In this document: piece after piece, positions 17,586 to 53,760 of the stretch | Position numbering within the stretch: the first letter of the stretch is position 1 | Layout of the letters: each line of letters starts with the position of its first letter | Source of the DNA: Candidatus Shapirobacteria bacterium CG_4_10_14_0_8_um_filter_39_15 | GTDB taxonomy: Bacteria; Patescibacteriota; Microgenomatia; UM-FILTER-39-15 | NCBI GenBank assembly: GCA_002784465.1 | Contig: PFLE01000013.1 | Location: 10,972-74,971, forward strand | Length of the DNA stretch: 64,000 nt | Reading direction: 5' to 3' | Notes under the pieces: generated by a model | Seen by the model: the letters and a program-made list of their open reading frames with translations, nothing else | Databases searched by the model: none | What the model was told of the DNA's origin: nothing | Program-made: the position numbers and the translations under genes

Positions 17586-17618
17586 AAAATTCGATATTCG
17601 AATTTAGTCATTTTGGTT

Positions 17619-17650: not shown

Positions 17651-17679
17651 AGTGTGCTTCTGTTTTCTGCCCCAAAAAC

Positions 17680-19017: not shown

Positions 19018-19026
19018 CTTTAAAAA

Positions 19027-19068
19027 TTGTCCACAAAATGTTAATACTTATCAACAAAATTATCCACA
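19027..19068 (+). promoter_or_regulatory. DnaA-box cluster between dnaA and dnaN (TTGTCCACA, TTATCAACA, TTATCCACA); candidate oriC segment
   Basis: attgtccacaaaatgttaatacttatcaacaaaattatccacattt in an AT-rich 250-bp intergenic region. Confidence 0.6.
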
Positions 19069-19266
19069 TTTCTAATCAGTTTTTAAACAAGAAAAAACCC
19101 GAAACTCAAAGTTCGTTATGGGATAGTGTTTCCTTTTTAACTGATCCAATCTTTCGTTTGGAGCTTAACCACACTCAATTTATGAGCAATCGGCGGTCAT
19201 TATCAACTTATCAACCACTTCTACTAAGACTATAACTATTAAGAATATATGATATACTTGTAATTA

Positions 19267-21365: not shown

Positions 21366-21369
21366 GAAT

Positions 21370-26180: not shown

Positions 26181-26863
26181 TTTTTCTCCTGTTCAACCAT
26201 GCCGGCCGCATATTCTTTACCGGTGGTTAATTTTTGCCCGCCGGCCGATTCGGGATTATAAATATCATAAAAAAGCTGAATGGCCTCCTGGGTTTTGATT
26301 TCCCTGATTTTTAACCCTAAACGGCCAAACTGGCGGACAATATGATCCCTTTTTGGTAACAAATTCATTTTGGCTTTTTCCAGAACATATTCTTTGGCAT
26401 AGGGCAGATTTCTGGGTTTTTTGACCAAGGCGGTTAAGTTTTGACTGACACCCAATTCCATTGAGGAAAAAGGAATAATAATATAAAAAGTTTTATCCAA
26501 AACATTATTCTTTTTAACCGTTTCTTCGACAAACCGCCGGTATTTGCGCATTTGATCCTGTAAAAGGGAATTGGTTTGTTTTTGGATTTCCCGATCAAGT
26601 AAAGTAAGATATTGAGTGACGTCTTTTTGGCGGGAGCGGATGACCAGCTGAATCGGAAAGGTTAACGAGTTGAGCAATTCAGCATAAGCATAAATCGTTG
26701 CATCCTGCTCTCTTTCGGAAAGTAAGCCGAAATTAATGGCCGTGGTGGATAAAATCAAACAGCACGAACCATCTTTAAGGATTACAACGTTGTCAACCAC
26801 GTCTTCAATGTTCAGATGGTCTTGGGTGGTGCCGCGAATTGGAATGGATAATGGGTCGGGCAT
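26177..26863 (-). CDS. Probable N-terminal domain of a split VirB4 (overlaps the downstream ATPase ORF by 4 nt, ATGA)
   Basis: 228 aa + 606 aa = VirB4 full size. ATGA overlap indicates translational coupling. No separate family recognised for this ORF. Confidence 0.45.
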   Translation of the reverse strand: MPDPLSIPIRGTTQDHLNIEDVVDNVVILKDGSCCLILSTTAINFGLLSEREQDATIYAYAELLNSLTFPIQLVIRSRQKDVTQYLTLLDREIQKQTNSLLQDQMRKYRRFVEETVKKNNVLDKTFYIIIPFSSMELGVSQNLTALVKKPRNLPYAKEYVLEKAKMNLLPKRDHIVRQFGRLGLKIREIKTQEAIQLFYDIYNPESAGGQKLTTGKEYAAGMVEQEKK

Positions 26864-26872
26864 AATATTTGA

Positions 26873-26996
26873 ATAAGTAGATTATCAGTTAATCAGAATA
26901 TCAGGAAAAGAAATCTGAGAGCAGAAACCAGTAAAATTAACCGATTAACTGATCTCTGTTTTACTTTACCTGATTTTCCGATCTACTGATTTACTA
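26873..26996. repeat. Family A palindromic repeat, copy R4 (intergenic inside the T4SS operon)
   Basis: ATTATCAGTTAATCAGAATATCAGGAAAAGAAATCTGAGAGCAGAAACCAG...CTCTGTTTTACTTTACCTGATTTTCCGATCTACTGATTTACT is about 75% identical to R1. Confidence 0.6.
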
Positions 26997-27962
26997 TTAT
27001 TTCGCTTTAATTTCAATCGGTTCTACAATCTCTCCTTTTAATTCTACTCTTACATTATCAAACGCGTAACCATCTTTTTCCAAAAGAATGTCATAAAAAC
27101 CATTGGCCAATTGAGTCGCGGTACGGAATTGACCGATTTTATTGGTCCGTAGGGCCCGAACCGGATTGGCGCCTTGATCCAAAATTTCCAGGATGACATT
27201 TTCCAAAATCCGGCCGTTTTTATCCGTTACCATACCAGCCAAAATATTAGGAATTGTTGGCGCCGACGGCATCGGTATTTCCGAAGAATACCGGGCCGGC
27301 TGCGCTTGAATCGGTTGGCGGAAAGTCGATGGCGGCGGAATATAAGGAATATGCGGGGGAGTGTATTTGGGAATATGAACCGGTTGAATATTTGGCTGCT
27401 GAACTTCTAAAACAAACGGGCCGCTTAATTTGTGAACCTGCACATTTCCAGGATTTGGGATCTCGTTGGTAACCCGGGTAACCGGCGGAGTGGTCATTGA
27501 AAACATATTTTTAATTTGATTTACAAATTCGTCTTCTTTTTGGTCAATGGCGCTTTTTGCGACCGGCAAGGTGGCAACATATTCGATCATTTTAATTTTG
27601 TCTTGAGGAGTGACCACTTGTTGAGCCGGTTCGACTGGAAGTGGCGGCCGTTCTTCTAAAAATTCCGGTTTTTTGGGCGTTTTTTTCCAAAGATACTGGG
27701 TGGGTGAATAAATAGTTTTCAAAAAAGACATAAGCCAGGTTTCTAAAGGTCGTTCTTCAATCGGGAAAAAAGCCAGGCCAACGCCTAAGACCGCCGAAAC
27801 AAAAACCAATGGCCATTTGAAATACCAGGCTAAACCGGAAGCGTAAAAAATTAACGCTACCACCAAACCGCCGGCTAATTCCAGAAATTGTTTTAAGGTC
27901 ATATCACCGACCAGGCGAAATTCATAGCTTGCAATATTTTGCGGGACTGGGTGTTGCTCCAT
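26997..27962 (-). CDS. Membrane protein with two N-terminal TM helices and Pro-rich C-terminal region; possible VirB3-like T4SS component
   Basis: LKQFLELAGGLVVALIFYASGLAWYF...LVFVSAVLGVGLAFF. Position directly upstream of the VirB4 ORFs as in Gram-positive-type T4SS (PrgI/VirB3-like). Confidence 0.35.
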   Translation of the reverse strand: MEQHPVPQNIASYEFRLVGDMTLKQFLELAGGLVVALIFYASGLAWYFKWPLVFVSAVLGVGLAFFPIEERPLETWLMSFLKTIYSPTQYLWKKTPKKPEFLEERPPLPVEPAQQVVTPQDKIKMIEYVATLPVAKSAIDQKEDEFVNQIKNMFSMTTPPVTRVTNEIPNPGNVQVHKLSGPFVLEVQQPNIQPVHIPKYTPPHIPYIPPPSTFRQPIQAQPARYSSEIPMPSAPTIPNILAGMVTDKNGRILENVILEILDQGANPVRALRTNKIGQFRTATQLANGFYDILLEKDGYAFDNVRVELKGEIVEPIEIKAK

Positions 27963-28009: not shown

Positions 28010-28375
28010 CTAAGACGTATTTTTCATTAAGGTTGTTAATATTTTAATAAGCTCTTCGTTCGTATCCTTAAATTTTTTAATTATTTGCTCGTCAAATTTA
28101 TTCGTTTCTAAAATAATTTCTAGCCAATAATCAGCTTCAAAACTGGAACCGCGAGCAATTCCTAAAAATTGATGATAACTTTTCGAATAATGTCTTCCAT
28201 AACCTTCAGCGATATTGGCGCCGATTGAAGAAACCGCTCTTATTAATTGTTTTATTAAGATTTCAGAAACTCGGTCCAACTTGGCATTGGCAAAATAGTT
28301 TATAACATCAATTGTTAAGGTTTTTGCCTTTTGATAGACGATTAGATTTTTATGGGAACTGGGCGGGTTTTCCAT
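28010..28375 (-). CDS. Four-helix-bundle protein (23S rRNA intervening-sequence protein / DGR Avd superfamily, PF05635-like), copy 1
   Basis: From the internal Met: MENPPSSHKNLIVYQKAKTL...AVSSIGANIAEGYGRHYSKSYHQFLGIARGSSFEADYWLEI matches the family pattern (WQKA...IxxNIAEGxxR...FLxIAxGSxxE). Confidence 0.7.
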   Translation of the reverse strand: MENPPSSHKNLIVYQKAKTLTIDVINYFANAKLDRVSEILIKQLIRAVSSIGANIAEGYGRHYSKSYHQFLGIARGSSFEADYWLEIILETNKFDEQIIKKFKDTNEELIKILTTLMKNTS

Positions 28376-28509
28376 TCTTTCTATGCACTTTGTGCTATGC
28401 ACTATGTTACTATCCATCGAGATTGGATTCAACTGCTTCAGACCCGATCACATTACAAACAAAATATGGCAAGTGGAAACAACTTGGTTGTTTGTGGTAA
28501 AATTAGGTT

Positions 28510-32156: not shown

Positions 32157-33929
32157 ATGCCAGATCCAGAACGAAGACTGCCTATTCCTCCGCCCGAGGC
32201 CAGCCAGGAGCCAAGATACGTTCCTCCCGAAATGATGGGAAGTTATTATTATCCAATACAGGATAAGGATTTGGCGGTTGAGATTGTTAAGGCTAACAAC
32301 GAAACCCTTCCTGAAGTAATATCGAATGCGATTTCCTATAGCGAGGGATTAATTTTAGGACGGGAAGTAGATTTAACCGATGATAATGAAGTTCTGTTTT
32401 ATATGGGTTTATTCTTAACCGGCGAGGGTGCGTTAAAAGTTCCGCTATTTTCTTATGCCAATCAGGCTTTGGAAATTAGAACGAGTGGTCGAGTAAGAGA
32501 GATAAGAAGCGAGGCTAGAACAACGCGCAGACCGTTGACAGAGGAAGAAAAGAAAGAGAAAACACTTTTAATTGGGATGGAGAATTGGAACAATGCTCGT
32601 CAAACGGCTCATCAGGCTTTTTTGGAGAGAGTGATAACTTGTGCCTCCGAAGAGGCAGCTGCGGATTTGGCTTTGAATACTCCGGCTCAAAAAGCCCCGA
32701 CAACACCGGACAAAACCGTTTGGCAAAATCTTTTTGGCCAACCGACGAAAGAAGGAGAAGCAACTCCTCAAAGTGAGTTTGGTAATTACGTGGATCTCAC
32801 CATGAGAGGGTTGGTGGCAATAGGAATTCCTCCTAGGGGCACACCCGAGTTTGATCGCTTACACCCTGACTTTAAGAACTTCAATTTTAGAGAAGTTTTG
32901 CCGCCAGCGGATAGAAATATACTTCCATGTACGATCTATACGACGGGTTTTGATAGCGAAAGTTTTAAAGCCTTGCTTAATTATGCGTTGCATATTTCCG
33001 ATGGAAGAATGGATGTTGTTTGGGAAGCGTGGAAATTATTTGAGACATGGGAAATGACAACAAATTTCGGATATATGAAAGATTTTGGGCAGAAGAAAGA
33101 TACCCCTAAATATATACACGGAGATCATAAATTAGGAGGCGCCCCGATAATGAGTGCGCTTTATGCCTGGATAGATCATCTTCCGGAAAAAAGGGCTTTT
33201 GAATATGGATATTGGGCCGATGGTACTTTAAATCCGGAATCGCCTCACAAACTTTCCCATAGCGGACACCCCTTAAGTATTTCTAAAATTCCATCGCTTT
33301 GCGGAGATTTTCTTAAAGAAACGAAGGTTGATGCGCCCGGCGGAGGAAAAAAGTCACTTCGGGAAATTTGGGCAGGGGGAATGTCTTTTGCTGATCGCGA
33401 ATTTCCCTGGACGCATTTAGAACAAGCAACACAAGATATGTCGCGGCTTGAGGAACAGGATTTTGGATCTTACAGCAGTTGGTTATTTAGGCGAAGAAGA
33501 GCTTTCAATATGGTTAAGGATATTAGAGAATTACCCTTCAAAGGTTTAAATGATTATGGAAAAGCAGACTTCTTTTCTTCGAGAATCAGAAACTGGAGGA
33601 ATACTTTGTATTTGCCGAAAGCGGATCAATATACACCAGATCAAAATCCGATGGTTTGGTTAATGGCAGACATCATTTTTAATCATCATCCGGAAACTAA
33701 CAATCATATTCCTTGGGCGCAAAAAAACCCGGATTTAGCTCTAAGAACCAGCCTTGATCCAAAAGAACGGTTTTCTTTTAATCCTATAAACGATCCCGAC
33801 GCAAAAAAACTATCTGCTTGGGAATTTTTAAGAGCTGGTTATGATTCAACCTGGATAACAAAGAAAGATGCTGAGTGGATTCGGGATTATCTTAAGATTC
33901 CTACCGCGGTGGGACAAAGAGGTCTTTAG
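32157..33929 (+). CDS. Hypothetical 590-aa cytoplasmic protein; W/Y/H-rich; no recognisable domain; locally higher GC
   Basis: Long uninterrupted ORF, no TM or signal peptide. First 150 nt about 47% GC versus about 37% background. Confidence 0.5.
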   Translation: MPDPERRLPIPPPEASQEPRYVPPEMMGSYYYPIQDKDLAVEIVKANNETLPEVISNAISYSEGLILGREVDLTDDNEVLFYMGLFLTGEGALKVPLFSYANQALEIRTSGRVREIRSEARTTRRPLTEEEKKEKTLLIGMENWNNARQTAHQAFLERVITCASEEAAADLALNTPAQKAPTTPDKTVWQNLFGQPTKEGEATPQSEFGNYVDLTMRGLVAIGIPPRGTPEFDRLHPDFKNFNFREVLPPADRNILPCTIYTTGFDSESFKALLNYALHISDGRMDVVWEAWKLFETWEMTTNFGYMKDFGQKKDTPKYIHGDHKLGGAPIMSALYAWIDHLPEKRAFEYGYWADGTLNPESPHKLSHSGHPLSISKIPSLCGDFLKETKVDAPGGGKKSLREIWAGGMSFADREFPWTHLEQATQDMSRLEEQDFGSYSSWLFRRRRAFNMVKDIRELPFKGLNDYGKADFFSSRIRNWRNTLYLPKADQYTPDQNPMVWLMADIIFNHHPETNNHIPWAQKNPDLALRTSLDPKERFSFNPINDPDAKKLSAWEFLRAGYDSTWITKKDAEWIRDYLKIPTAVGQRGL

Positions 33930-33931
33930 TT

Positions 33932-35515
33932 TCATCTTCCCGATAGAATCTTCTTGGTCGCAGCTTCTTTAGTATTCCAAGTAAGGCCTTGCCATTCTGT
34001 AGGTATTACAGGGCTTTTTCCTGTTGTTAAGTTGCGATAGCCTGCTTCAATTCCTCCGGCGGCCCCCATTCTTCCTGCAGCCATTGGAACACCCATTGCT
34101 GCTTCCCCTATTCCTAGTCTATCTCCAAACGATTTCCCAGCCAAAACATTTTTAATCATATCGGCAACATGAGGCGTCATGAGCATCAATCCTAAGGCAA
34201 CAAAGATCATTAAAAAGAAAAAGCTGACTCTGGCTGGGATACTCGCTTGTACGACTTGTTGAACTTCGGCTAAGGTTGATGGTGAGGCACCGGGAATAGA
34301 AACAATTCCTATTCCTGCGAAAGCTCCTTCGAGTAATGGCATTTCATGGAGGGATTCCCTAACCAGAAAATTGGCGATCAAGAGCATTGTTAAAACGACT
34401 GGTAGAACCGCGAGGTTGCTCAAAATATTTTTAAACCAAGCACCGGTTGAGCTGGAAGCAGGAAGGGCGCCAAAAGCAAGAAGAAATGGAGCGAAAATAA
34501 TTGCCAAAACAACATTTACATAAGCCTTAAGCAACGTCCACAAAAGACGAAAAAGGGCGATGATGAAAACGATAGCAAAAATGATCAAAAGAATTAATGC
34601 GCCGACGACTGCGCCGGTAGCCATTCCCGCCGGTCCTCCAAATGGAATACCGGCAACTCCTCCAACAATCATGCCAAGAATAATAAGGAAGACAGCACCG
34701 ATTTCAAACGGTGCCATTGCGGATTGAATAATTAAGCTAGCATTATCAACAACAGAGGTAACCGGGGTCCCGGAGACAAAACTGAAATAATCAGGCCGAA
34801 GTTGATGAAAAACACCCAAAAGAAGATTATTAATAATCCACATAAGGTCGACTAAAAAGCCAGCGATAGCATAGGAAAAAGTGACCAGAATTAAGCCAAT
34901 AATAATTTTTGGGAGGGCTGCCTCGAGGGTAATTATTGTGCGCGGATCCACTTTAAATCGAAACATGATGGCAAAACCGGTAATCACAAAAACCAAAACA
35001 AAAAGAAGGTAAGACATGTCTCGAAAAGCTTTCCAGAGAGGCAAAACCGTTTCCATACTTGTAAATCCAATGCCATTATCTTGTGCATAAGCCGGTTTAG
35101 CGATGCCGACCTTTGAACCAAGATCAGCTAAATAAGTCAATCCCGAAGCGGGAGGTGCTTGGTAAACTAAACCAATAAGAGAAGCGAGGGTTGGAACAAG
35201 TCCGCCATTATCTGTTCCCGGACTTGGGGTACCGCCGCTGGAAACAGTACTCAATTTTGGCATTCCTGCCTGATCCGCAAAAGAAAACATAATGGCTTTA
35301 ATGGTTTCGCGAACAAAACTTTGCAAATTCATATCCGGGGATTCTATTGCTTGCTGATATAAAAGAGGATATGAGGCTTCGGGTGTAGAAAATGCCAGAA
35401 CAGGTTTGGAAACGGCAAGAGAACCTGCAATTAAGAGAAAACCTAAGACAAATATGCGGAATTTGGTGTTCATAATGAATAAATTAAATCTAACATCATT
35501 ATTTTTTATTTTCAA
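33932..35515 (-). CDS. Polytopic membrane protein, VirB6/TrbL-like candidate (T4SS inner-membrane channel)
   Basis: Signal peptide (FLLIAGSLAVSKPVLAF), about 200-aa periplasmic N-domain, then about 6-7 TM helices rich in G/A/I (IPFGGPAGMATGAVVGALILLIIFAIVFII). Next to the pilin operon. Confidence 0.45.
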   Translation of the reverse strand: MKIKNNDVRFNLFIMNTKFRIFVLGFLLIAGSLAVSKPVLAFSTPEASYPLLYQQAIESPDMNLQSFVRETIKAIMFSFADQAGMPKLSTVSSGGTPSPGTDNGGLVPTLASLIGLVYQAPPASGLTYLADLGSKVGIAKPAYAQDNGIGFTSMETVLPLWKAFRDMSYLLFVLVFVITGFAIMFRFKVDPRTIITLEAALPKIIIGLILVTFSYAIAGFLVDLMWIINNLLLGVFHQLRPDYFSFVSGTPVTSVVDNASLIIQSAMAPFEIGAVFLIILGMIVGGVAGIPFGGPAGMATGAVVGALILLIIFAIVFIIALFRLLWTLLKAYVNVVLAIIFAPFLLAFGALPASSSTGAWFKNILSNLAVLPVVLTMLLIANFLVRESLHEMPLLEGAFAGIGIVSIPGASPSTLAEVQQVVQASIPARVSFFFLMIFVALGLMLMTPHVADMIKNVLAGKSFGDRLGIGEAAMGVPMAAGRMGAAGGIEAGYRNLTTGKSPVIPTEWQGLTWNTKEAATKKILSGR

Positions 35516-37014: not shown

Positions 37015-37330
37015 TCAAAAGTTTTTGCTTTTAAGTTTGATTACGCCAGCGGCTAACATATTAGCAATTTCCGTAACTTCATTTAGCAATCGTATAATAC
37101 TTTCTTTTTTCTCTACCAAGCCGGAATCTCTTAAAAGGCATAACCAATATTTTGTTTCGTTGGCACTTCTTAAAGCAATCTCGTAAAATTTCTTGAACTC
37201 CAAGCGGGAGCTAGAAGCTCCTCCTTCAATAAGATTTGCTCCGATTGACATTGCCGCCCTTAATAATTAATCAGCAATAACCCAAGCGGCTCGTTTATTA
37301 GGAAGAGTGTCCATTAACGTAATTATAGCG
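37015..37330 (-). pseudogene. Truncated or frameshifted four-helix-bundle (IVS/Avd-like) gene, copy 2
   Basis: The ORF MSIGANLIEGGASSSRLEFKKFYEIALRSANETKYWLCLL covers only the C-terminal half of the family. An upstream out-of-frame remnant (MDTLPNKRAAWVIAD*) resembles the RRAAxSI segment. Confidence 0.5.
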
Positions 37331-37445: not shown

Positions 37446-40400
37446 TTATGGTTTGCAACAAACATTCACACCTCCGCAACCATCCCCGCCGGGTAGTCCA
37501 GTGCCGAGAGTGTCATTTGCAGCACAACTATCAGTGCAAGTTCCACCCAGTTGAGAACAAGAGAGGACGGGGTTAACGCTCGTTAAGCTGGCTGGAAACA
37601 GACTGTTGGTTACCCATTGTTTTGCCTGTTGGATTCCGCCCAAGTGGGGGAAATAAAACTGGCCTTCGGTCGGAGAAGTTGAACCGTCTTTGTGTCTTTG
37701 AAGGGGACAATCACCTTTGATTGGTAGGTTTCCGGAACACCAACCAACCTGATCGCTGTAAGGTGTATATTTTATTGTTGCCTGGCTTATTGCTGGTGTA
37801 TCCGGAAAACCGGGATGAAAGGAAGGACGAAAAATATTAAGCACCCCCATTGATCCACTGGTCTGATTCCAAATATCATCAAGATAGGGGTGAATTAAGC
37901 TGACCCCTATATTACGGCTAACTTGCTCACTATCATTCCAGATGGTTGGTTGGCTTCCTTCTCGGCCGGTCCATTCGTAACATCGATTATCAGTATTTTG
38001 TATTTGGACACAGACCGGATCAGGCGCAACATTATTGGGATTTGCCCAATCACCGGCTTCACAAGTTACCGTATGTCCGTTTCCTCGTCCACCCAAATCA
38101 AGACAGGGGTCCATATTTATCTGATCATATTTTCCTTCTTCAAGCAGCCAAGCTTGACAAGCCCAACTGGATCCATTGCAGGCAACATATCGATTATTTT
38201 CAAATTTATCCACCGCGGTTAGTTTATATTGAATATTGCTGCAGCAAAGAGTATCGCCGGTTCCGGTAATGGCATCTTTTTTAATACAGGAATCAATTGA
38301 TTTGGCTGGATCCTGGAAACAAGTTGGCGGTGGGGCCGGGGCAACACCGCAAGTCGTATCCCATTTATAAGTCCCATCGGCGTTTTGAGCCAAGGTGATA
38401 CTGCAAGAAACGGATCCTCCATCCACGCAGCAGTTCGCTCGGGAACCGCCGGAAGCTTTTGTCCAATTGGCAGAAACTGTAAAAGCATCGCCAACATTCA
38501 TATTTATGGTGCTGGGATGATAATTAGTTCCCCATTGAGTTTCCCATTTACCCGGACACTGGATTTCTGGACCGCCAGTGTCTGATAAAAATCCGCTGGC
38601 GCCTCCAGAATCATAGATTGATAAATTCTTTAAATGGGAAATACCGTCACAATTTTGTCCGGCCGGACAGGGAACACAAAAATAAGATTTAAAACTATGT
38701 TGTCCTGGGGCTGGAGCATCAATATCATAAAAAGTCATATTACCTGTACAGTATCTTTGGCAGGGTGGAGGAGTCGCCGCCTGAACGGATTTGGGACTAA
38801 ATAAGCCAGTGAGTGGATTGTTGGTAGAGGAATTATCAGCAAGAACATTCTGGTTATTGGAAATTTGGGCCGTTGTGGTAATTGGTTCATTGTAGGGAAT
38901 TAAAATACTGGAAACTATTTTACTTGATTCATATAATCTTGCCAGATGGGGAACTTTTTCAACCTGATTTTTATTGGTGGGATCTAAATTTGTAAAAGTG
39001 TCTTCGTTTTTAGCACCTAAATAAGGTTGAATCAGGCCTTCGGTATCTTCCCGGGAAACCAATGGAACCGCTTCCCAAATACGCCCCCAAGTACTTTTTT
39101 TCCAAGTCGCCCACTTTATTTCATAATCAGAGTCGTTGACCGAAGGAGGAAGATGACTGGCAATTTCCGAAAGTTTTTTATGCCCTTCGAGGTCTGAAAA
39201 CGGCGGAATCGGTATAAAACCCATACTATAATAACGAACGTCTATAGGTAAGAGCTTCCCTAATGGTGATGCGTTATAAGCTCGTAAGATTAAACCAATT
39301 TTATCAATTTCCACAGCTTGATCAGCACTATTATTAAATAAACAATGATGAAACCATTCATCCTTGCTAGGTACAGGTACTCCTAATTTTTTATAAATTA
39401 AACTAATTAAATTAAATTCGTTCCAAATATCATAAGAAATCTCCATAATAAACGGAGCATCCCAACAAAGACGGGTTGGATAGTTAACCATATAATCATG
39501 AATTTTTCCTTCAAAAGGCGCTTGGGTATTAAGCGAGCGCACCGCCCTGGCGACCATTTGTTCTTTAAGGGTGTCTTGGTAGGTCATGGGTGTTAATTTT
39601 CTTAAAACCCCGGCATAATTAACATAATCCAACCAGTATTTTTCATAGTTTTTATAATATTCATTTGTTCCTTCAAAATAATCCGCCAAATATTTACTTT
39701 CACTTTCTTGGTCTTCCTTACCCACAAAAGGAATAGTAATATCTTTTGGATTAATCGTAATTGTTCCGCCCCAAGTGGTAGTGACTAAATGAGGAACAGT
39801 TAACGTTGCATCAGTACAGCTATCTGGACCCATCCATCTTTGCCAGGAAACATGATCAGTGACGGTAAAACTGGTAGCGCAGCTGCCGGAATTATTACCA
39901 ATATTGCAAGCTTGACAGGCGACCGGTCGGGAATTACGGTCACCGTTTTGAGTTAGGTCGCAAACCGTTGATGGATAATTCGGAAGGGGGGGTTTAGTAT
40001 CAATCGTTCCCGGAAGTGTAGTATTTGCTTTTGCGGGTGTATTACAAGGATCCCACCAATCGTTTTTCCAGCGCGGATCCATAAATCCGCCGGTATCTCT
40101 AATTGCCACCTGAATATCTCCGTGAGCCGTTCCTAATATTTCGGAAGCACCTAAAGCGGGTAGTTGAACCCGTCCGGCAGCATTAAGTTGATTATATAAA
40201 GCTAAAAGTTCCGGTCTAACGGTAAAATTTCCCATAATATGGATACCGTATCCGTTTCTAATCCCGCCGCCGGTATTATACATAATAAAAATCTCATTAG
40301 ATGAAGCATAATAAACCATCACCTGTTTGCCGTTGCCGATACTAAACGGAGCAGCGGGCACAAGGATATTTCCGGTTGATGAACCGTTAGTGGAAAAACC

Positions 40401-40742
40401 AACAACTGAAGCATAATCACTTGGGTTTTCTTTTATAGTTTCTAAAGCATCAATCGGTAAATTGGTACCACTATCATATTGATGAATTCGGTATAAAGTG
40501 GTAACCACTGGCCGGGCATCATCCTCAACCAAACCGCACAATCTGGGAGCACTGTTTACGGGATGCGCGAAATAAAAAAGACCATAATTATGACCTTGCT
40601 CACCGATTGGAATTTGAACTAAACCTCTTAAGCTTATTCTTAGATCCAGATCGGTTTCTGCAGTACGGGCATAAATTGGGGAAGATATACCAGCAAACCA
40701 GACAACCAGTAAACTAGAAAACCCGAATAGAAGTTTCTTCAT
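37446..40742 (-). CDS. 1098-aa secreted Cys/Trp-rich surface protein, candidate pilus-associated adhesin; C-terminus carries a defensin-like 6-Cys motif
   Basis: Signal peptide MKKLLFGFSSLLVVWFAGISSPIYA. Last gene of the pilin operon. Terminal CSQLGGTCTDSCAANDTLGTGLPGGDGCGGVNVCCKP has the pattern C-x6-C-x3-C-xn-C-x5-CC. Confidence 0.55.
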   Translation of the reverse strand: MKKLLFGFSSLLVVWFAGISSPIYARTAETDLDLRISLRGLVQIPIGEQGHNYGLFYFAHPVNSAPRLCGLVEDDARPVVTTLYRIHQYDSGTNLPIDALETIKENPSDYASVVGFSTNGSSTGNILVPAAPFSIGNGKQVMVYYASSNEIFIMYNTGGGIRNGYGIHIMGNFTVRPELLALYNQLNAAGRVQLPALGASEILGTAHGDIQVAIRDTGGFMDPRWKNDWWDPCNTPAKANTTLPGTIDTKPPLPNYPSTVCDLTQNGDRNSRPVACQACNIGNNSGSCATSFTVTDHVSWQRWMGPDSCTDATLTVPHLVTTTWGGTITINPKDITIPFVGKEDQESESKYLADYFEGTNEYYKNYEKYWLDYVNYAGVLRKLTPMTYQDTLKEQMVARAVRSLNTQAPFEGKIHDYMVNYPTRLCWDAPFIMEISYDIWNEFNLISLIYKKLGVPVPSKDEWFHHCLFNNSADQAVEIDKIGLILRAYNASPLGKLLPIDVRYYSMGFIPIPPFSDLEGHKKLSEIASHLPPSVNDSDYEIKWATWKKSTWGRIWEAVPLVSREDTEGLIQPYLGAKNEDTFTNLDPTNKNQVEKVPHLARLYESSKIVSSILIPYNEPITTTAQISNNQNVLADNSSTNNPLTGLFSPKSVQAATPPPCQRYCTGNMTFYDIDAPAPGQHSFKSYFCVPCPAGQNCDGISHLKNLSIYDSGGASGFLSDTGGPEIQCPGKWETQWGTNYHPSTINMNVGDAFTVSANWTKASGGSRANCCVDGGSVSCSITLAQNADGTYKWDTTCGVAPAPPPTCFQDPAKSIDSCIKKDAITGTGDTLCCSNIQYKLTAVDKFENNRYVACNGSSWACQAWLLEEGKYDQINMDPCLDLGGRGNGHTVTCEAGDWANPNNVAPDPVCVQIQNTDNRCYEWTGREGSQPTIWNDSEQVSRNIGVSLIHPYLDDIWNQTSGSMGVLNIFRPSFHPGFPDTPAISQATIKYTPYSDQVGWCSGNLPIKGDCPLQRHKDGSTSPTEGQFYFPHLGGIQQAKQWVTNSLFPASLTSVNPVLSCSQLGGTCTDSCAANDTLGTGLPGGDGCGGVNVCCKP

Positions 40743-40747
40743 TGTTG

Positions 40748-41059
40748 TTACGAGCTGGGAATACTAAAGTTGAGAACATCAACACCGGTGAATTGCCAAA
40801 TAAATTTCATAATCAACCAGATAATTACCAGCATCACCAGGCCAAAAATGGCATAGGTTATGGTTTGAGAAGCCGAGGCAGACGCTTTTGGATCTCCTCC
40901 GGAAGTCATATATTTAAAACCACCCATGATCAACAAGATAAATAAAAGCAAAACCCCCAGCTGGGCCGCGATATTCAAAATAATTTTAAATATGCACTCG
41001 AATCCTTGAAGAGTTGCAACGCCGCCGATTGTACATTTAGGATCTTCCCAAATAGCCAT
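40748..41059 (-). CDS. VirB2/TrbC-like small pilin paralog
   Basis: Two hydrophobic helices flanking the loop motif GGFKYMTSGGDPKAS...AIFGLVMLVI. This pattern is shared by all eight paralogs. Confidence 0.55.
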   Translation of the reverse strand: MAIWEDPKCTIGGVATLQGFECIFKIILNIAAQLGVLLLFILLIMGGFKYMTSGGDPKASASASQTITYAIFGLVMLVIIWLIMKFIWQFTGVDVLNFSIPSS

Positions 41060-41142
41060 ATATTTAGTTTATCAGACCATAATAAAAACACAATACCCCG
41101 AGCCAAGCTCCGGGTATTGTAATTCTTGTACAAAAATCCAAC

Positions 41143-41535
41143 CTAAATCGTTGGAATATTTACGTTGAGAATGTGGATGTCAAAGAATTTCTCAATTAAG
41201 CTCGTAATTGCCCAAGCCGAGAAAACAATGACTAGACCGATTAAAGCGGCCGTGATTCGATTCTTCGCGCCCTCGGTTCCAGCCTTATCACCGCCGGAAA
41301 CTAGCCATTGAATACCGCCGATGACCAGCATAAAGAAAAAGGCCAAAGCGGCAACTACCATAATCAATTGAACAATTGCCGAAAGCATTGAACCAATATC
41401 TAAATTAGCCATATTAACCCATTGGCCAGTGGTGGGTTTTAAATTAATTATGTCGTTTGCTTGGGCAAAGGCTGACCCGGCTAGGTTAACCATTAAGCTT
41501 GCAGTTCCTGCTAAAGATAAAATTGTTTTTTTCAT
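41143..41535 (-). CDS. VirB2/TrbC-like small pilin paralog with signal peptide
   Basis: LVIGGIQWLVSGGDKAGTEGAKNRITAALIGLVIVFSAWAI. Confidence 0.55.
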   Translation of the reverse strand: MKKTILSLAGTASLMVNLAGSAFAQANDIINLKPTTGQWVNMANLDIGSMLSAIVQLIMVVAALAFFFMLVIGGIQWLVSGGDKAGTEGAKNRITAALIGLVIVFSAWAITSLIEKFFDIHILNVNIPTI

Positions 41536-41562
41536 TTTCTCACCTCCTTTCGAACTACTTAT

Positions 41563-41889
41563 TTATTTTAACATAATCGCGTCAATATTTATGAGCGTTA
41601 GATCCATATTGAAAAATTTACCCACCAAGCCGATTACGGCATAAGCGCTAAAAACTAAAATTAAACCAATAAGAGCATGGGTCATTTGTTCCTTGGATGC
41701 TTCTGTTCCTGCCTTATCGCCGCCGGAAGTCATATATTGGACGCCGCCGATGACTAAAAGCACAAAACTAACAAGAGAAGCAATCACGAAAAGAAGAGTA
41801 ATCATGGCCGGCAGGAATTTATTTAAGAATTCAACCCCGTTAAGAGCTTGTAAATTAGTTGATAAAGCTGGATTTGTTATTTCTGCCAT
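41563..41889 (-). CDS. VirB2/TrbC-like small pilin paralog
   Basis: LLVIGGVQYMTSGGDKAGTEASKEQMTHALIGLILVFSAYAV. Confidence 0.55.
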   Translation of the reverse strand: MAEITNPALSTNLQALNGVEFLNKFLPAMITLLFVIASLVSFVLLVIGGVQYMTSGGDKAGTEASKEQMTHALIGLILVFSAYAVIGLVGKFFNMDLTLINIDAIMLK

Positions 41890-41893
41890 TTAA

Positions 41894-42325
41894 TTATTGT
41901 AAAGTCACTGAACTAGCACAACTTGGGTCAATAAACTTACCCGGGTTTAGAATATCTAAACCAAGGATTTTGCTTACAAGATCAATAAGAAAAATTCCGG
42001 CAATAATAATTACTAAACCAACCAGCCCGTGAGTAATTCTTTTTTGGGCATTTTCTGTAGCCATTTTGTCCCCGCCGGCGGATAACCAGGCAAGCGCTCC
42101 GCCGAACAATAAAAAGACAAAATATAATCCGGCGATAATCGTTAATAGTCCCACAATCGTTGACATTGCCATGTTCAATTTATCGATTGCTCCACAAGGA
42201 TGCTTACCCCCCAAATTCATTGAAACAATATCACCAAGCTTACCTAATCCTTGTAACCAGCCCACGCTCGGACCCCAGTCGTCTATTGGTGTTTTATTTT
42301 GTGCTAGTAAAGTTAAAATTATCAT
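41894..42325 (-). CDS. VirB2/TrbC-like small pilin paralog
   Basis: LLFGGALAWLSAGGDKMATENAQKRITHGLVGLVIIIAGIFL. Internal start MIILTLLAQNK chosen to avoid overlap with the next gene. Confidence 0.5.
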   Translation of the reverse strand: MIILTLLAQNKTPIDDWGPSVGWLQGLGKLGDIVSMNLGGKHPCGAIDKLNMAMSTIVGLLTIIAGLYFVFLLFGGALAWLSAGGDKMATENAQKRITHGLVGLVIIIAGIFLIDLVSKILGLDILNPGKFIDPSCASSVTLQ

Positions 42326-42693
42326 AAATTTGGGTTTGGTGTATAAATTTGCGGAAAAAGGATTGCCCCGGCATCTTGAAACAAAAGCCAACCGAAAATT
42401 GCTGCCAAAACAAACGATCCGGCTACTAAGAATAACCCAATTAGGGATTGGGTTAATTTTCCAACCGCCTTTTCCACTTGTTTGGAGTCGCCTCCAGCAG
42501 ACATAAATTGGTAACCAGCCATAATGACATTAATAAAAGCATAAAGCCCGGCAATAACAATAACAAGCTTAATGCCGTTGTTTAAAAAAGAAACAAGACC
42601 TGGAGCGATGCCCTTACTTCCGGATAGATTTGAATAAACATCAACTCCTGGTGGAGGGTTAATTTTACCTAACGGACTGGTTGGTATCGCCAT
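42322..42693 (-). CDS. VirB2/TrbC-like small pilin paralog
   Basis: IMAGYQFMSAGGDSKQVEKAVGKLTQSLIGLFLVAGSFVL. Confidence 0.55.
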   Translation of the reverse strand: MAIPTSPLGKINPPPGVDVYSNLSGSKGIAPGLVSFLNNGIKLVIVIAGLYAFINVIMAGYQFMSAGGDSKQVEKAVGKLTQSLIGLFLVAGSFVLAAIFGWLLFQDAGAILFPQIYTPNPNL

Positions 42694-42697
42694 ATTG

Positions 42698-43021
42698 TTA
42701 CAAAATCTTAAAGCCAGTAATTGCTTCTACTATCTGGATTATCCAATAACTGGTAAAAATAATCAAGAACCCGATTAAGGCTGAAGTTACCGCCGAAGCC
42801 CCCTGACCGGTTTTTCTTGGGTCGCTTTCCTGGCCGCCGGCAATCACCGCCAACCCCCCGCCGATTAATAAAAAGAAAAGCAAAATTCCCGCCAAAATAT
42901 AAATGTTGGGTAAAAGAACGGAAACTAGAGAACCCAAACTGTCAAAAAGAGCAGGAGCATAAGTGTTTTTGTCAATGGTAACAGCGGCATAAGCATGATT
43001 CACAAGATAAGAATATAACAA
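42698..43021 (-). CDS. VirB2/TrbC-like small pilin paralog (first gene of the operon)
   Basis: LLIGGGLAVIAGGQESDPRKTGQGASAVTSALIGFLIIFTSYWI. Confidence 0.5.
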   Translation of the reverse strand: MLYSYLVNHAYAAVTIDKNTYAPALFDSLGSLVSVLLPNIYILAGILLFFLLIGGGLAVIAGGQESDPRKTGQGASAVTSALIGFLIIFTSYWIIQIVEAITGFKIL

Positions 43022-43039
43022 TTAGAGAAGGGGTGTCAA

Positions 43040-46316: not shown

Positions 46317-47681
46317 TCAATTTTTAACACATTTTCCGCTCGCATCCGGATAATTTCCGTCTAATTGACAATTATATCCTGCCGGACACGCAACTCCTGC
46401 AAATCCCCCGCAGAATTTTCCTTCGGGATTTGATGGGGTTGGAGTTGATGTTACTTCTGCTTTTGAATTGAACTCCATTGTTACAAGCAACTTATTTACG
46501 GCCGATTCGACATCCTTGTAGGTACCGGCTGTTTCAATGGTAATAATATAAACAAGATCGTCTTTAAGAGAAAATATTTCGGTAGTATTCCAAAGTCCGC
46601 AAGGAGTATCCCGATATGTCAATCCTTCAACCCTCCCAATTTTACTAGAGTATCCTTTCGATTTACTGATACAGGAGTCGATTTGCGGTACAATATCTTC
46701 TAATTTACGACTGTCTGCATTTTGATATGTTATCGCCAGGGTAAAATTTACTTTATTTATCGCCGGAGAAATTATTTGAACCACTCCGGGCGTATCAACA
46801 AAAACTCCATCAACCGAAGCTATTTTATTTTCGTTTAATTTATATCCCGAAGGGTATCGAATTGAATATCGCCCATTATTATTTGAATAGAGACTCCAAT
46901 TGGCAGGATTTTCTTCTGGATAAGTAAATTTAAAAGAAGCCCTTATATACTCAAACTGGGTATAAAAATCATGCGCCTTTTCGGTATCTGCCTGGATAAC
47001 GGAGGTGGCAATTTCATAACAGGTCGTGTTTTTCAGATGACGAAAAATCTTGTTTTTATAATTTACTCCATTGATAGTTGAAGAATTAGAATAAGTCCGA
47101 AAGAGTTCACCACCAAAAATATTATCAATTAATGAATGATCGTTATAAAGATTTTCACACTCGGTTTTTTTGATATTTGGTTTTACGGATACAGAAATTA
47201 TGGCAACCGTGTTTTCAAGTTCAATTACGGGTTTTACTCCGAGGAAAGATTGTCCCCGATCTTCAGTAGTTAAAAAGTTAGCAGGATAATTAAATTCAAA
47301 TTGATATTTTTCGTTGCGATAGACTATGTTCGGAATTGGTTCCGAAGTTGGAGTCGCAAGAGGAACCGGCTCTAAATTTTTTAGTGAAACAGGATTTTTC
47401 TCTAAGAGATTTCTCATACACCAACCTATCGCATCCGCCGTTTTGGTTGTTTTCAAACAGAAATAACCCCGAGGGCATATCGTCCCCATAAAACCACCGC
47501 AAGAAATATCTGTCTTTAAACTTTTAAATCCAAAATATCCAATAATAATGAAAATAACCAGAAAGAGAATTACCAAAAGTAAAAATATTTTTGGTTTTTT
47601 GGAAGAAACGGGAACGGGTGAAACAGGAGTATTTTCAGGTTGAACAAGATTTACGGGTGGTTGAGTTGGTTGCGGATCCAT
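46317..47681 (-). CDS. Hypothetical membrane-anchored secreted protein with CGGFxGxxCPxGYxC motifs at both ends
   Basis: TM FLLLVILFLVIFIIIGYF. N-proximal CGGFMGTICPRGYFC and C-terminal CGGFAGVACPAGYNC...C. Confidence 0.4.
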   Translation of the reverse strand: MDPQPTQPPVNLVQPENTPVSPVPVSSKKPKIFLLLVILFLVIFIIIGYFGFKSLKTDISCGGFMGTICPRGYFCLKTTKTADAIGWCMRNLLEKNPVSLKNLEPVPLATPTSEPIPNIVYRNEKYQFEFNYPANFLTTEDRGQSFLGVKPVIELENTVAIISVSVKPNIKKTECENLYNDHSLIDNIFGGELFRTYSNSSTINGVNYKNKIFRHLKNTTCYEIATSVIQADTEKAHDFYTQFEYIRASFKFTYPEENPANWSLYSNNNGRYSIRYPSGYKLNENKIASVDGVFVDTPGVVQIISPAINKVNFTLAITYQNADSRKLEDIVPQIDSCISKSKGYSSKIGRVEGLTYRDTPCGLWNTTEIFSLKDDLVYIITIETAGTYKDVESAVNKLLVTMEFNSKAEVTSTPTPSNPEGKFCGGFAGVACPAGYNCQLDGNYPDASGKCVKN

Positions 47682-53308: not shown

Positions 53309-53668
53309 ATGAACGAAGATGCTTCTTACAAAAAACTAATAATTTGGCAAAAGGCCGATCTTTTTGCTAGAGAAATCTATAAAGTCACAGTATTTTTTCC
53401 CAAAGATGAAATATATGGTTTAACCTCCCAGATACGAAGAGCTGTTCTCTCCGTTGTTCTTAATATTATTGAAGGTTATGCAAGAAATAATAAGAAAGAA
53501 TTTAAGAATTTTTTAAGGATTGCTTATGCTTCGTTGGTTGAGGTTGAATATTTGCTCGAATTTTCATCTGTTAGAGGCTACATAACGAAAGAAAAATATT
53601 TTTTTCTTAATGGTTTAAGAGACGAATGTGGAAAAATTCTTTGGAAGTTTATGCTTTCCCAAAAATAG
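53309..53668 (+). CDS. Four-helix-bundle protein (23S-IVS / Avd superfamily), copy 3
   Basis: KKLIIWQKADLFAREIYKVT...GLTSQIRRAVLSVVLNIIEGYARNNKKEFKNFLRIAYASLVEVEYLLEF. Confidence 0.75.
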   Translation: MNEDASYKKLIIWQKADLFAREIYKVTVFFPKDEIYGLTSQIRRAVLSVVLNIIEGYARNNKKEFKNFLRIAYASLVEVEYLLEFSSVRGYITKEKYFFLNGLRDECGKILWKFMLSQK

Positions 53669-53680: not shown

Positions 53681-53760
53681 CTGGCGTACTAGTGTACTAG
53701 TGTTCTGGAGTACTCGTTTGTTGGTTCTGGTGTACTGGCTCACTAGTGTTCTAGTGTACT
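53681..53760. repeat. Right arm of CACTAGTAC-word inverted repeat
   Basis: ctggcgtactagtgtactagtgttctggagtactcgtttgttggttctggtgtactggctcactagtgttctagtgtact. Confidence 0.6.

Follow-up and report, generated by a model that had tools for sequence, protein, structure and literature searches.

A six-cysteine module resembling beta-defensins in sequence and predicted fold on pilus-related proteins of a Shapirobacteria bacterium

A large secreted protein of Candidatus Shapirobacteria bacterium CG_4_10_14_0_8_um_filter_39_15, encoded at the end of a pilin gene array, terminates in a short six-cysteine tail. This tail is probably a mobile, disulfide-stabilised binding module displayed at the cell surface, and one member of a prokaryotic family that resembles the beta-defensins in sequence and in predicted fold. 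Two VirB2-like pilins encoded in the same 64,000 nucleotides of DNA (the whole stretch analysed, here called the window) carry one copy each, and the placement of all three copies on secreted parts of one pilus-related gene set is supported by the data described below.

Three copies of one module in the window

The genes and the tail under discussion are as follows.

37446..40742, minus strand: gene for a 1098-aa secreted, Cys-rich protein (37 Cys), the final gene of the pilin array (ORF translation)
37455..37559, minus strand: six-Cys beta-defensin-like module at the extreme C-terminus of the 1098-aa protein (translation, regular expression, family HMM)
54258..54761, minus strand: 167-aa pilin gene (ORF; PF18895 match)
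53759..54253, minus strand: 164-aa pilin gene (ORF; PF18895 match)

Translation of the large gene ends in ...VLSCSQLGGTCTDSCAANDTLGTGLPGGDGCGGVNVCCKP and a stop codon. The cysteines of this tail are spaced C-x6-C-x3-C-x15-C-x5-CC and span nucleotides 37455-37559, so that the end at 37560 given in the initial annotation was one base too far; KP and the stop codon occupy nucleotides 37446-37454. Directly before the module is a 13-aa linker rich in Ser, Thr and Pro, and the protein begins with a Sec-type signal peptide, recognised by inspection.

A real six-Cys module closing the 1098-aa protein, and its presence as a common mini-domain on the two Cys-pilins, had been proposed in the initial annotation; translation, pattern search, shuffle controls and profile HMMs confirm the former, and the HMM identifies the three sites as copies of one domain. 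A six-frame search of the 64 kb with C-x6-C-x3/4-C-x6-20-C-x4-10-CC finds exactly three sites, in the 1098-, 167- and 164-aa ORFs, and the same expression occurs in none of 200 shuffles of the window. When the 1098-aa protein is shuffled 20,000 times the expression arises once, and as many shuffles of the Cys-rich C-terminal 458 aa alone yield it 11 times. A family HMM built on 79 modules from outside the window was applied to all 1059 stop-to-stop ORFs of the window; it returned the 164-aa pilin (E 1.4e-10), the 167-aa pilin (3.5e-5) and the 1098-aa protein (4.6e-5), with the next-best ORF at 0.24. With the outside-window HMM the best domain of the real 1098-aa protein scores 17.7 bits, and the highest score among 3000 shuffles is 8.6 bits. 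A smaller HMM, from 13 external modules, had scored the tail at just 9 bits after heavy composition-bias correction, hence the need for the deeper 79-module HMM.

The Cys spacing is shared in part. A C-x6-C-x3-C start and a final CC are common to the three modules, whereas the later loops differ (x15/x5, x9/x6 and x12/x9): the 167-aa pilin has C-x6-C-x3-C-x9-C-x6-CC (nucleotides 54585-54674) and the 164-aa pilin C-x6-C-x3-C-x12-C-x9-CC (nucleotides 54062-54169), while the full x6, x3, x15, x5 spacing once ascribed to all three is found only in the 1098-aa protein. The three copies have a pairwise identity of 31-36% and are not each other's closest relatives; in the list of 81 relatives of any one copy, the others rank 19th to 64th. 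Intragenomic duplication as the origin of the three copies is rejected, as they are not mutual nearest relatives. The module of the 1098-aa protein is a divergent member of the family.

The large protein and the pilin genes

No known domain was recognised in the 1098-aa protein. It matches no Pfam family and no PDB sequence at E <= 1, its sole NCBIfam match is a spurious one to halocyanin, far under the cut-off, and it has no sequence match to known pilus tip or adhesin families (VirB5/TraC, PrgB-type adhesins) or to solved structures. Its 59 homologues, from Patescibacteria, terminate at a conserved motif, ...G.FYFP.LGG.Q.AK.W...L.P, that in this protein precedes the module; the module is thus a discrete appendage placed exactly behind the conserved C-terminal motif of the large-protein family, and none of the 59 homologues carries it.

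Downstream of the stop codon lies what by eye looks like part of a four-helix-bundle protein of the 23S rRNA IVS type, and just past it a convergent AbiEii toxin gene. The tail was also considered as a remnant of a lost downstream pilin, which is rejected since no pilin remnant is present 3' of the stop codon.

The surrounding genes are those of a type IV secretion system (T4SS) and its pilins.

40748..43021, minus strand: array of six VirB2-like T4SS pilin genes (PF18895 matches, ORFs)
42698..43021, 42322..42693 and 41894..42391, minus strand: array pilin genes (ORFs)
41563..41889, 41143..41535 and 40748..41059, minus strand: further array pilin genes (ORFs)
43012..43039, minus strand: promoter-like site, TTGACA, 16 nt, TATATT with TG (11/12 matches, consensus scan only)
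21370..27962, minus strand: monoderm-type T4SS core genes, adjoining dnaA and dnaN
26997..27962, minus strand: PrgI/VirB3-like gene of the T4SS core
26177..26863, minus strand: 228-aa ORF with no Pfam match, at the position of a TraC-like gene in the related loci L001 and L002
24360..26180, minus strand: VirB4 of the T4SS core
21370..24363, minus strand: 997-aa M23 peptidase of the T4SS core

The 1098-aa gene starts 5 nt past the last of the six PF18895 (T4SS_pilin) genes (40748..43021). The promoter-like site lies slightly upstream of the first pilin gene or overlaps its start, and would fit a single transcript that covers both the array and the large gene. Four PF18895 matches in the array are above the curated cut-off of 26.6 bits (34.2-42.1) and three are below it (25.3, 21.9, 18.3); none of the six array pilins bears the six-Cys module. 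Microgenomatia have been described as having variable VirB2-like pilin arrays and a monoderm-type T4SS by dnaA (PMC12102498), and the window is like those Patescibacteria genomes in both its PF18895 array and its T4SS adjoining dnaA. In that paper no mention was found of Cys-rich N-terminal passenger domains on pilins, of a defensin-like module, or of a conserved large protein closing the array.

The two Cys-pilins are encoded at a separate locus, by a SpoIID gene, 13-14 kb from the pilin array and about 16 kb from the 1098-aa gene. Both consist of a signal peptide, the beta-defensin-like module, a linker and a PF18895 pilin domain, the 167-aa protein having in addition a Cys...GCI loop between linker and pilin domain. 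PF18895 is matched in the C-terminal two-helix region of both (37.5 and 33.8 bits against the cut-off of 26.6), and a further match, to NCBIfam NF045849 (pilin-like conjugal transfer protein), stays below threshold, with 35 bits where 40 are required.

Three syntenic loci, L001 to L003, retain the pilin array and the large protein, placed behind the array in each, as well as the SpoIID-adjacent pilin pair; L001 and L002 also have the T4SS core gene order of the window. The expected conservation of the module in homologous operons is not borne out: it is absent from L001 and L002, and in L003 it is on one pilin only, the neighbouring pilin and the large protein being without it. One further homologue, P0059, is a fusion in which a linker connects the large-protein C-terminus to a 167-aa-type pilin. 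Operon position, synteny and this fusion suggest that the 1098-aa protein is tied to the pilus.

A prokaryotic module family

Profile searches collected 82 distinct modules, of which three come from animals and the other 79 from prokaryotic proteins or from metagenome proteins without assignment; most are on Patescibacteria pilins, and two are from named archaea (Altiarchaeota, Aenigmarchaeota). The collecting profile included the three window modules, so some circularity attaches to these counts. The modal spacing is C-x6-C-x3-C-x11-C-x5-CC and the consensus ..C...GG.CK..C...E...G..DC......CC.P; neither Pfam nor NCBIfam has a model for this family, and scans of GTDB genomes found no relatives.

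The commonest site of the module is between the signal peptide and the VirB2-like pilin domain. Other carriers include tandem arrays of up to 7 copies, often as beads spaced by Pro-rich linkers, an M23 peptidoglycan hydrolase with two copies (P0205), a dockerin protein, and archaeal proteins. Domain architectures are promiscuous, and the orthologues of the large protein lack the module. The family behaves as a mobile cassette, shuffled among extracellular proteins of Patescibacteria (CPR) and, in two named cases, of Altiarchaeota and Aenigmarchaeota. The module cores have a median net charge of -2 across the family, with -3 for the tail of the 1098-aa protein, -2 for the 167-aa pilin and +2 for the 164-aa pilin; being mostly anionic, the module is not a classical cationic defensin.

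Likeness to beta-defensins

The prokaryotic modules resemble beta-defensins both in profile comparisons and in predicted models. As one profile (A2) had included three animal modules, the search of PDB sequences (177,635 entries) and the hhalign comparison were repeated with a prokaryote-only profile (A3), and the outcome was unchanged. A3 has 14 PDB matches, all of the beta-defensin fold, among them the crocodile defensin CpoBD13 (E 4.9e-5), hBD3 (2.2e-4), a penguin defensin, hBD4, crotamine, a big defensin, helianthamide and a tick carboxypeptidase inhibitor. Among isolated modules, 35 of 82 match PF13841 (Defensin_beta_2) at E <= 0.1, the best at 2.9e-7; Myotoxins, Defensin_beta, Defensin_big, DEFB136 and Inhibitor_I68 are matched as well. 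One pilin-domain protein (P0182) is above the PF13841 gathering cut-off, at 25.8 versus 22.2 bits. A 17-module profile run over 1.84 billion proteins retrieved a genuine animal peptide, flounder beta-defensin I-3 (E 5.6e-4), which hhalign aligns with A3 at 96.5% probability and which is 44% identical to a CPR pilin module. A homologue search from this flounder sequence gave 3 fish sequences only, too few for an animal-side profile.

In profile alignments all six Cys of the window modules align with Cys of hBD3, hBD4 and crotamine, and the modules resemble beta-defensins at other positions too, with GG ahead of C2, Glu following C3 and Gly ahead of C4. All three window modules are of the motif type C-x6-C-x3/4-C-x9-11-C-x5-7-CC, with later loops varying. 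None of them reaches the Pfam gathering cut-offs for PF13841 or PF00711; the isolated 167-aa pilin module scores 21.1 bits (cut-off 22.2) and 19.1 bits (cut-off 21), respectively, and the isolated 164-aa pilin module and 1098-aa tail have no Pfam match even at E <= 10.

AlphaFold2 (AF2) predicts a short helix and three strands for the 167-aa pilin module (pLDDT 80.7). Its best Foldseek match is hBD4 (TM 0.72, rmsd 0.8 Å), a big-defensin domain is matched at TM 0.74, and the best 50 of 73 PDB matches at E <= 10 are all trans-defensins or beta-defensin-like toxins; the best Foldseek E-value is 0.08, and at such tiny domain size E-values are not significant. Beta-defensin structures were among those on which AF2 was trained, so that the predicted fold and the Cys pattern are not independent. 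The tail of the 1098-aa protein is modelled at low confidence (pLDDT 60.5), and all 14 Foldseek PDB matches of this model are beta-defensin-fold proteins. Given the lack of a Pfam match of its own, the 9 bits in the first HMM and the low-confidence model, its link to beta-defensins runs via the prokaryotic family profile. Beta-defensin disulfides are paired C1-C5, C2-C4 and C3-C6 (PMC7203481). The close superposition of the model on hBD4 implies that pairing in the module would be of the same type.

Comparison with known proteins brings out what is distinctive in the modules. Vertebrate beta-defensins (PF00711/PF13841) have six Cys at nearly the same spacing (C-x6-C-x3-C-x11-C-x7-CC in flounder beta-defensin I-3), the short helix and three-stranded sheet predicted for the 167-aa pilin module, and profile matches at E 5e-5 to 1e-2. 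They are, however, free peptides cut from precursors, whereas the modules are prokaryotic and lie inside larger secreted or membrane proteins, those of the window being part of bacterial proteins 164 to 1098 aa long; the C3-C4 and C4-C5 loops of the modules are also often longer. Beta-defensins are strongly cationic, the net charges of hBD1-3 and crotamine being +4 to +6, in contrast to the mostly anionic modules. Crotamine (PF00819, myotoxins) is the top PDB match of the 82-module profile (E 1.4e-5, 28.8 bits) and has a G-K-M-D-C stretch in common with the 164-aa pilin module, and big defensins (PF14862) have the same fold as one domain of a two-domain protein. Both are nonetheless cationic animal toxins or immune peptides, and crotamine has x6 between C2 and C3. 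In the tick carboxypeptidase inhibitor, avian AvBD11 and helianthamide, which are themselves among the profile and Foldseek matches, the beta-defensin fold serves as a protein-binding or inhibitor module that can be repeated in tandem, although these proteins are eukaryotic, have no link to a pilus and act on other targets. Small disulfide-rich units of defensin type are known from bacteria in the cis-defensins xanthusin-1 and actifensin/actinomycesin (PMC11561630, PMC12284004). Those are free secreted peptides of the CS-alpha-beta fold with a C...CxxxC...CxC pattern, while the window modules end in CC and match trans-defensin families only.

A proposed role and its alternatives

In the explanation that we favour, the last 37 residues of the 1098-aa protein would be an autonomous mini-domain stabilised by three disulfides, from a large prokaryotic family with the beta-defensin (trans-defensin) Cys pattern and predicted fold. 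If the F-pilus is a guide, a module set between the signal peptide and the membrane-embedded pilin domain would face outwards from the pilus. In this Shapirobacteria lineage the large secreted protein, itself presumably co-transcribed with the pilin array, would also have gained one copy at its C-terminus, attached by a short S/T/P linker. A compact, protease-resistant and surface-exposed module might then contact the envelope of a partner cell, and so give the pilus and its accessory protein a surface for recognition or adhesion. Display on the pilus, a binding function and the disulfide pairing are inferred, and if the source habitat is anoxic, as it may be, disulfide formation outside the cell would be uncertain.

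The initial annotation had seen in the shared module a common interaction or assembly unit of a putative tip adhesin and minor pilins, for example for docking or disulfide-linked capping. On that view the tail of the large protein would pair with the N-terminal copies on the Cys-pilins, by beta-strand dimerisation like that of some beta-defensins or by disulfide exchange, and thereby anchor the large protein to the pilus as its tip or cap. Dimers are known for beta-defensins such as hBD2, and a non-covalent contact between modules is conceivable, since in this genome only are all three pilus-related proteins equipped with one and since the P0059 ("Rosetta-stone") fusion indicates that the large-protein C-terminus and a 167-aa-type pilin can be joined. 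A conserved unit is nevertheless not supported: the operon layout is conserved, yet none of the 59 homologues has the module, and in L003 a single pilin bears it. The module is also found in tandem arrays and on proteins outside the pilus system, the three window copies are no nearer each other than they are to foreign modules, and the Cys-pilins are encoded well away from the array. All six Cys, moreover, are presumably in internal disulfides; as they align with the Cys that form three such bonds in beta-defensins, no thiol would be spare for an intermolecular one. Docking is on balance unlikely. Rather unlikely, too, is an offensive, defensin-like effector, on the pilus and large protein or released from them, that would help an epibiotic parasite to breach its host by acting on the membrane (as crotamine) or on cell-wall precursors (as hBD3 with lipid II). 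Such a role would fit the resemblance of the modules to crotamine and beta-defensins, both in sequence and in predicted fold, and the two copies on the M23 peptidoglycan hydrolase, where a wall-targeting domain is expected. Yet the modules are mostly neutral or anionic, the 1098-aa tail among them, there are no obvious processing sites for freeing a peptide, and multiple beads with Pro-rich linkers are more typical of structural or binding repeats; a cationic membrane-lytic peptide in particular is unlikely.

The two remaining explanations would take away the defensin relationship or the module itself. It is very improbable that the Cys bind a metal (Zn or an Fe cluster) in place of forming disulfides, with a merely convergent Cys spacing. 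The sample name CG08_land suggests a subsurface and possibly anoxic source, no Dsb-like gene was found within the 64-kb window, and the 167-aa pilin has a weak metallothionein match (E 0.99), but the modules have the conserved non-Cys features of beta-defensins, are placed behind Sec signal peptides, and in profile searches match disulfide-bonded beta-defensin-fold proteins only and no metal-binding families. Chance similarity inside a Cys-rich protein might be invoked in view of its 37 Cys and of the just 31-32% identity between the tail and the pilin modules, more than half of the identical positions being Cys. The initial annotation had allowed for this, and it is now scarcely tenable, being effectively refuted by the shuffles and the outside-window HMM; the exact position of the module behind a conserved C-terminal motif speaks against it as well.

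Implications

Trans-defensins (alpha-, beta- and big defensins) are said to have evolved in animals only (PMC7203481), and bacteria to possess cis-defensins only (PMC11561630); a literature search for prokaryotic beta-defensin or trans-defensin domains returned nothing relevant. A prokaryotic family that matches beta-defensins by sequence profile, Pfam models and predicted fold would challenge this animal-only view and call for a new account of how the superfamily arose, unless the case is a strong one of convergence. We regard it as possible, though with more doubt than conviction, that the modules are true homologues of animal beta- and big defensins, the trans-defensins being then older or horizontally exchanged, and that the window copies might also pair. 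Were this true, the trans-defensin superfamily would be no animal invention, and its fold would be a pilus-displayed passenger in ultra-small episymbiotic bacteria and archaea.

For the biology of the CPR, VirB2-like pilins bear swappable, presumably disulfide-rich passenger domains, and a conserved large secreted protein closes the pilin array. The small autonomous module should express easily, and passenger domains and large protein together offer handles on how episymbionts might recognise or grip their hosts.

A shared six-cysteine module

Three proteins encoded in the window carry the same small six-cysteine domain, and the sharing is real and well past chance. A six-frame search with the pattern C-x6-C-x3/4-C-x6-20-C-x4-10-CC finds exactly three sites in the 64 kb, namely the C-terminal tail of a large, 1098-aa protein and the heads of two Cys-pilins; no site was present in any of 200 shuffles of the window. 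The genes concerned are these:

Pilus-related genes of the window
21.4-28.0 kb: monoderm-type T4SS core (PrgI/VirB3-like gene, 228-aa ORF, VirB4, M23 hydrolase)
37446..40742, minus strand: COT44_03460, hypothetical protein of 1098 aa with 37 cysteines
40748..43021, minus strand: array of six small pilin genes with Pfam matches to PF18895 (T4SS_pilin, VirB2-like)
53759..54253, minus strand: 164-aa Cys-pilin with a PF18895 domain
54258..54761, minus strand: 167-aa Cys-pilin with a PF18895 domain

Shuffling the 1098-aa protein 20,000 times produced the pattern in one shuffle, and the same treatment of its C-terminal 458 aa, a stretch rich in Cys, produced it in 11. A family HMM, built from 79 modules that all come from outside the window and run over all 1059 stop-to-stop window ORFs, was significant for the same three proteins only (E 1.4e-10, 3.5e-5 and 4.6e-5), with the next-best ORF at E 0.24. 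On the 1098-aa protein it scores 17.7 bits, against at most 8.6 for shuffled copies; this, with the empty window shuffles, effectively refutes chance similarity in Cys-rich sequence. The mini-domain that the initial annotation saw on tail and pilins is thus upheld, whereas the common cysteine spacing it described holds for the opening half and the closing CC but not for the later loops: successive spacings are x6, x3, x15, x5 in the tail, x6, x3, x9, x6 in the 167-aa pilin and x6, x3, x12, x9 in the 164-aa pilin.

Pilus loci and their surroundings

The window (G+C 39.6%) comes from a lineage of the Patescibacteria (CPR). By inspection the 1098-aa protein begins with a Sec-type signal peptide (MKKLLFGFSSLLVVWFAGISSPIYA), and it ends ...FPASLTSVNPVLS-CSQLGGTCTDSCAANDTLGTGLPGGDGCGGVNVCCKP, followed by the stop. 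Its gene follows the last pilin gene of the array at a distance of 5 nt; a strong promoter-like site (43039-43012) lies immediately upstream of the array. All six array genes match PF18895, four above the curated cut-off. The best match is a 130-aa pilin (41143..41535), at the end of whose gene lies a terminator-like hairpin with a T-run (41137..41155, minus strand), separated by an 83-nt gap from the next pilin gene; the hairpin could be an attenuator downstream of a major pilin. The Cys-pilin genes form a separate pair adjoining a SpoIID gene, 13-14 kb away from the array, and both products read, from N to C, signal peptide, six-Cys module, linker and pilin domain.

In the T4SS core the unannotated 228-aa ORF occupies the position of a TraC-like gene in syntenic loci. 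The core stands directly beside rnpA, dnaA and dnaN, at the replication origin region, with yidC just upstream (16912..27962 for the whole, core included), in agreement with the arrangement, and the proximity of T4SS and origin region, published for Patescibacteria (PMC12102498). Past the 1098-aa gene, at 32157..35515, lie two unannotated genes of 590 aa (plus strand) and 527 aa (minus strand), matched in size and orientation by the genes after the large protein in L001, L002 and L003, three syntenic loci of other genomes; their products may be part of the same system. Between them and the 1098-aa gene are an AbiEii toxin gene, preceded by an ORF that may be an antitoxin, and a fragment like a four-helix-bundle (23S rRNA IVS-type) protein. 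Copies or fragments of this "23S rRNA intervening sequence protein" type (PF05635) occur at 28010..28432 (scanned with Pfam) and at 53309..53668 and about 37040..37250 (both recognised by eye); two of them flank pilus-related loci, and a gene of this type also lies between the pilin genes of L001.

A 454-aa protein (46317..47681, minus strand) bears a different four-Cys mini-module at either end (CGGFMGTICPRGYFC...C close to the N-terminus and CGGFAGVACPAGYNC...C at the C-terminal end), with a PsbP_2-like domain between them and a weak Lustrin_cystein match; it gives the window a second case in which a small Cys module recurs at the ends of proteins. A tmRNA gene (tag peptide GTSNYAANYAYC) and two neighbouring tRNA-Ser genes (anticodons GCT and TGA) are found at 60647..61009 and 62227..62404; the long minus-strand ORFs over 62077..62540 are probably spurious readings across the tRNA-Ser genes.

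The module family and its likeness to beta-defensins

Among 1.84 billion representative proteins, a profile of 17 modules had 39 matches at E <= 0.001. Modules occur singly or as tandem arrays of up to seven copies spaced by Pro-rich linkers. Many of the carriers have a pilin domain; others are small proteins with a membrane helix at the N-terminus, large Cys-rich proteins, one M23 peptidoglycan hydrolase and one dockerin protein. Named sources include the archaea Candidatus Altiarchaeota and Candidatus Aenigmarchaeota. Some of the matched proteins (P0187, P0211) open with what resembles, to the eye, a class III signal peptide of archaea, the type IV pilin-like kind (MNKKGVELSLNAVIIAV..., ...KKGQFFLIAAIV...), which hints that archaea carry the same module on another kind of filament subunit. 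Of the two animal matches, one is a genuine beta-defensin of flounder, I-3 (E 5.6e-4), and the other an uncharacterised protein from a hemichordate. Altogether 82 distinct modules were collected, 79 prokaryotic or unassigned and three animal, with modal spacing x6, x3, x11, x5 and the consensus C...GG.CK..C...E...G..DC......CC.P.

Four routes (two through Pfam, a PDB profile search and a predicted structure), which we count as independent, agree on beta-defensin likeness. In Pfam, the whole 167-aa pilin has sub-threshold matches to Defensin_beta_2 and Defensin_beta, and P0182, a pilin-domain relative, scores 25.8 bits on PF13841, above the gathering cut-off of 22.2. Scanned singly, 35 of the 82 modules match PF13841 (best E 2.9e-7); the other matches are mostly to related families (Myotoxins/crotamine, Defensin_beta, Defensin_big, DEFB136, Meleagrin, tick carboxypeptidase inhibitor), with single weak matches to each of a few unrelated ones, such as a zinc finger and two DUFs. 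The tail in isolation matches no Pfam family and is tied to beta-defensins by way of the prokaryotic family.

Among all PDB sequences, 20 matched the 82-module profile at E <= 10, every one a trans-defensin or a beta-defensin-like toxin or inhibitor (best crotamine, E 1.4e-5). Because this profile includes the three animal modules, the search was repeated with 42 modules from pilin-domain proteins, two named archaeal proteins and the window only; all 14 matches have the same fold, led by CpoBD13 (4.9e-5), hBD3 (2.2e-4) and a penguin defensin (0.0019), with hBD4, crotamine, big defensin, helianthamide and others further down. Aligned to the flounder peptide with hhalign, the prokaryote-only profile reaches a probability of 96.5%, and that peptide shares 44% identity with one CPR pilin module over 34 residues.

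The 167-aa pilin module, modelled from the 82-sequence alignment (pLDDT 80.7), is predicted to form a short helical turn and three strands, a fold that is not independent of the Cys pattern, AF2 having seen beta-defensin structures. Its top Foldseek match in PDB is hBD4 (TM 0.72/0.67, rmsd 0.8 Å, probability 1.00), and the best 50 of 73 matches at E <= 10 are all beta-, alpha- or big defensins or beta-defensin-like toxins, Foldseek E-values not being significant at such small domain size. A low-confidence model of the tail, from only 17 sequences (pLDDT 60.5), finds the same fold in 14 of 14 PDB structure matches. Homology with animal beta-defensins and convergence upon them both stand as explanations.

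The module differs from classical defensins, which are free peptides, in being a domain inside larger bacterial and archaeal proteins. It differs also in charge: the family is mostly neutral or anionic (median net charge -2; tail -3, 167-aa pilin -2, 164-aa pilin +2), in contrast to +4 to +6 for hBD1-3 and crotamine.

Conservation, docking and the likely role of the module

The initial annotation proposed a docking or disulfide-linked capping unit common to a putative tip adhesin and minor pilins, and conservation does not bear this out. The module is missing from all 59 homologues of the large protein, which are 28-46% identical and apparently all belong to Patescibacteria; these homologues end in a conserved ...G.FYFP.LGG.Q.AK.W...L.P motif, past which the window protein continues with a 13-aa linker and the module. 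The three syntenic loci keep the layout of the window (SpoIID, pilin pair, isoprenoid genes, array of 5-6 pilins, large protein and two conserved unknown genes, followed in L001 and L002 by the T4SS core); of their three large proteins and the five SpoIID-adjacent pilins covered, only one L003 pilin has the module:

Module content of the syntenic loci
L001: large protein without module; pilin pair, one with a different Cys-rich head, the other with none
L002: large protein without module; SpoIID-adjacent 169-aa pilin with a different Cys-rich head
L003: large protein without module; pilin pair, one with the beta-defensin-like module, the other with a different Cys-rich head

Such differences among the four loci indicate that the module is swapped in and out lineage by lineage. 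All six of its cysteines align with the internal-disulfide cysteines of beta-defensins, which argues against a disulfide-linked cap. The three window copies form one family by HMM; at 31-36% identity to one another, and ranking 19th to 64th of 81 among one another's relatives, they are not nearest relatives, which rules out recent duplication or a matched set as their origin.

Homotypic docking between tail and pilin heads nevertheless has two points in its favour, the presence of the module on all three proteins in this genome alone of the four, and P0059 (1248 aa), a large-protein homologue that runs through the C-terminal motif and a Pro/Thr linker into a PF18895 pilin of the 167-aa type. 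The fusion implies that the two ends joined in it, C-terminal in the large protein and N-terminal in such a pilin, are compatible; at the level of sequence it is a Rosetta-stone link from the array-closing protein to the pilins. Set against the module-free large proteins and the lack of close kinship among the three copies, docking of this kind seems rather unlikely. A defensin-like effector used offensively is less probable again, given the anionic charge of the module, and metal binding by it is quite improbable. The module most likely serves in binding or recognition toward the envelope of a partner cell, a reading that fits its place on the M23 hydrolase, in the usual slot of wall-targeting domains.

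The module would be a mobile, disulfide-stabilised, extracellular mini-domain. In the F-pilus the pilin N-terminus is at the outer surface; by analogy, a module between signal peptide and two-helix pilin core would decorate the filament exterior. It is only one among several passenger types: among homologues of the 167-aa pilin (120 listed) the Cys-rich N-terminal domains are very diverse, and about a quarter of these proteins carry one or two copies of the beta-defensin-like module. Across Patescibacteria these pilins (P0061-P0180) show many unrelated Cys-rich N-terminal domains, of 4 to 25 cysteines, some duplicated. On the large protein the module is a lineage-specific C-terminal accessory. 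Accessory domains differ among the homologues (in precomputed Pfam, PF00150 cellulase, GH5, in P0044; PF11790 Glyco_hydro_cc in P0024; PF13620 CarboxypepD_reg in P0003, P0033 and P0048; the pilin in P0059), so that the conserved core seems, from these sequences, to be a scaffold with exchangeable ends.

Variable VirB2-like pilin arrays figure in published work on the T4SS of Patescibacteria (PMC12102498); in publications on that system we found no mention of Cys-rich passenger domains, an array-closing large protein or a defensin-like module. The defensin literature reports only cis-defensins from bacteria (PMC11561630) and states that animals alone evolved trans-defensins (PMC7203481). No beta-defensin-like domain from a prokaryote was found described in the literature searched, the coverage of which was incomplete, so that an earlier description is possible. 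The fold itself is already known; what is new is its taxonomic setting, its domain context and its charge.
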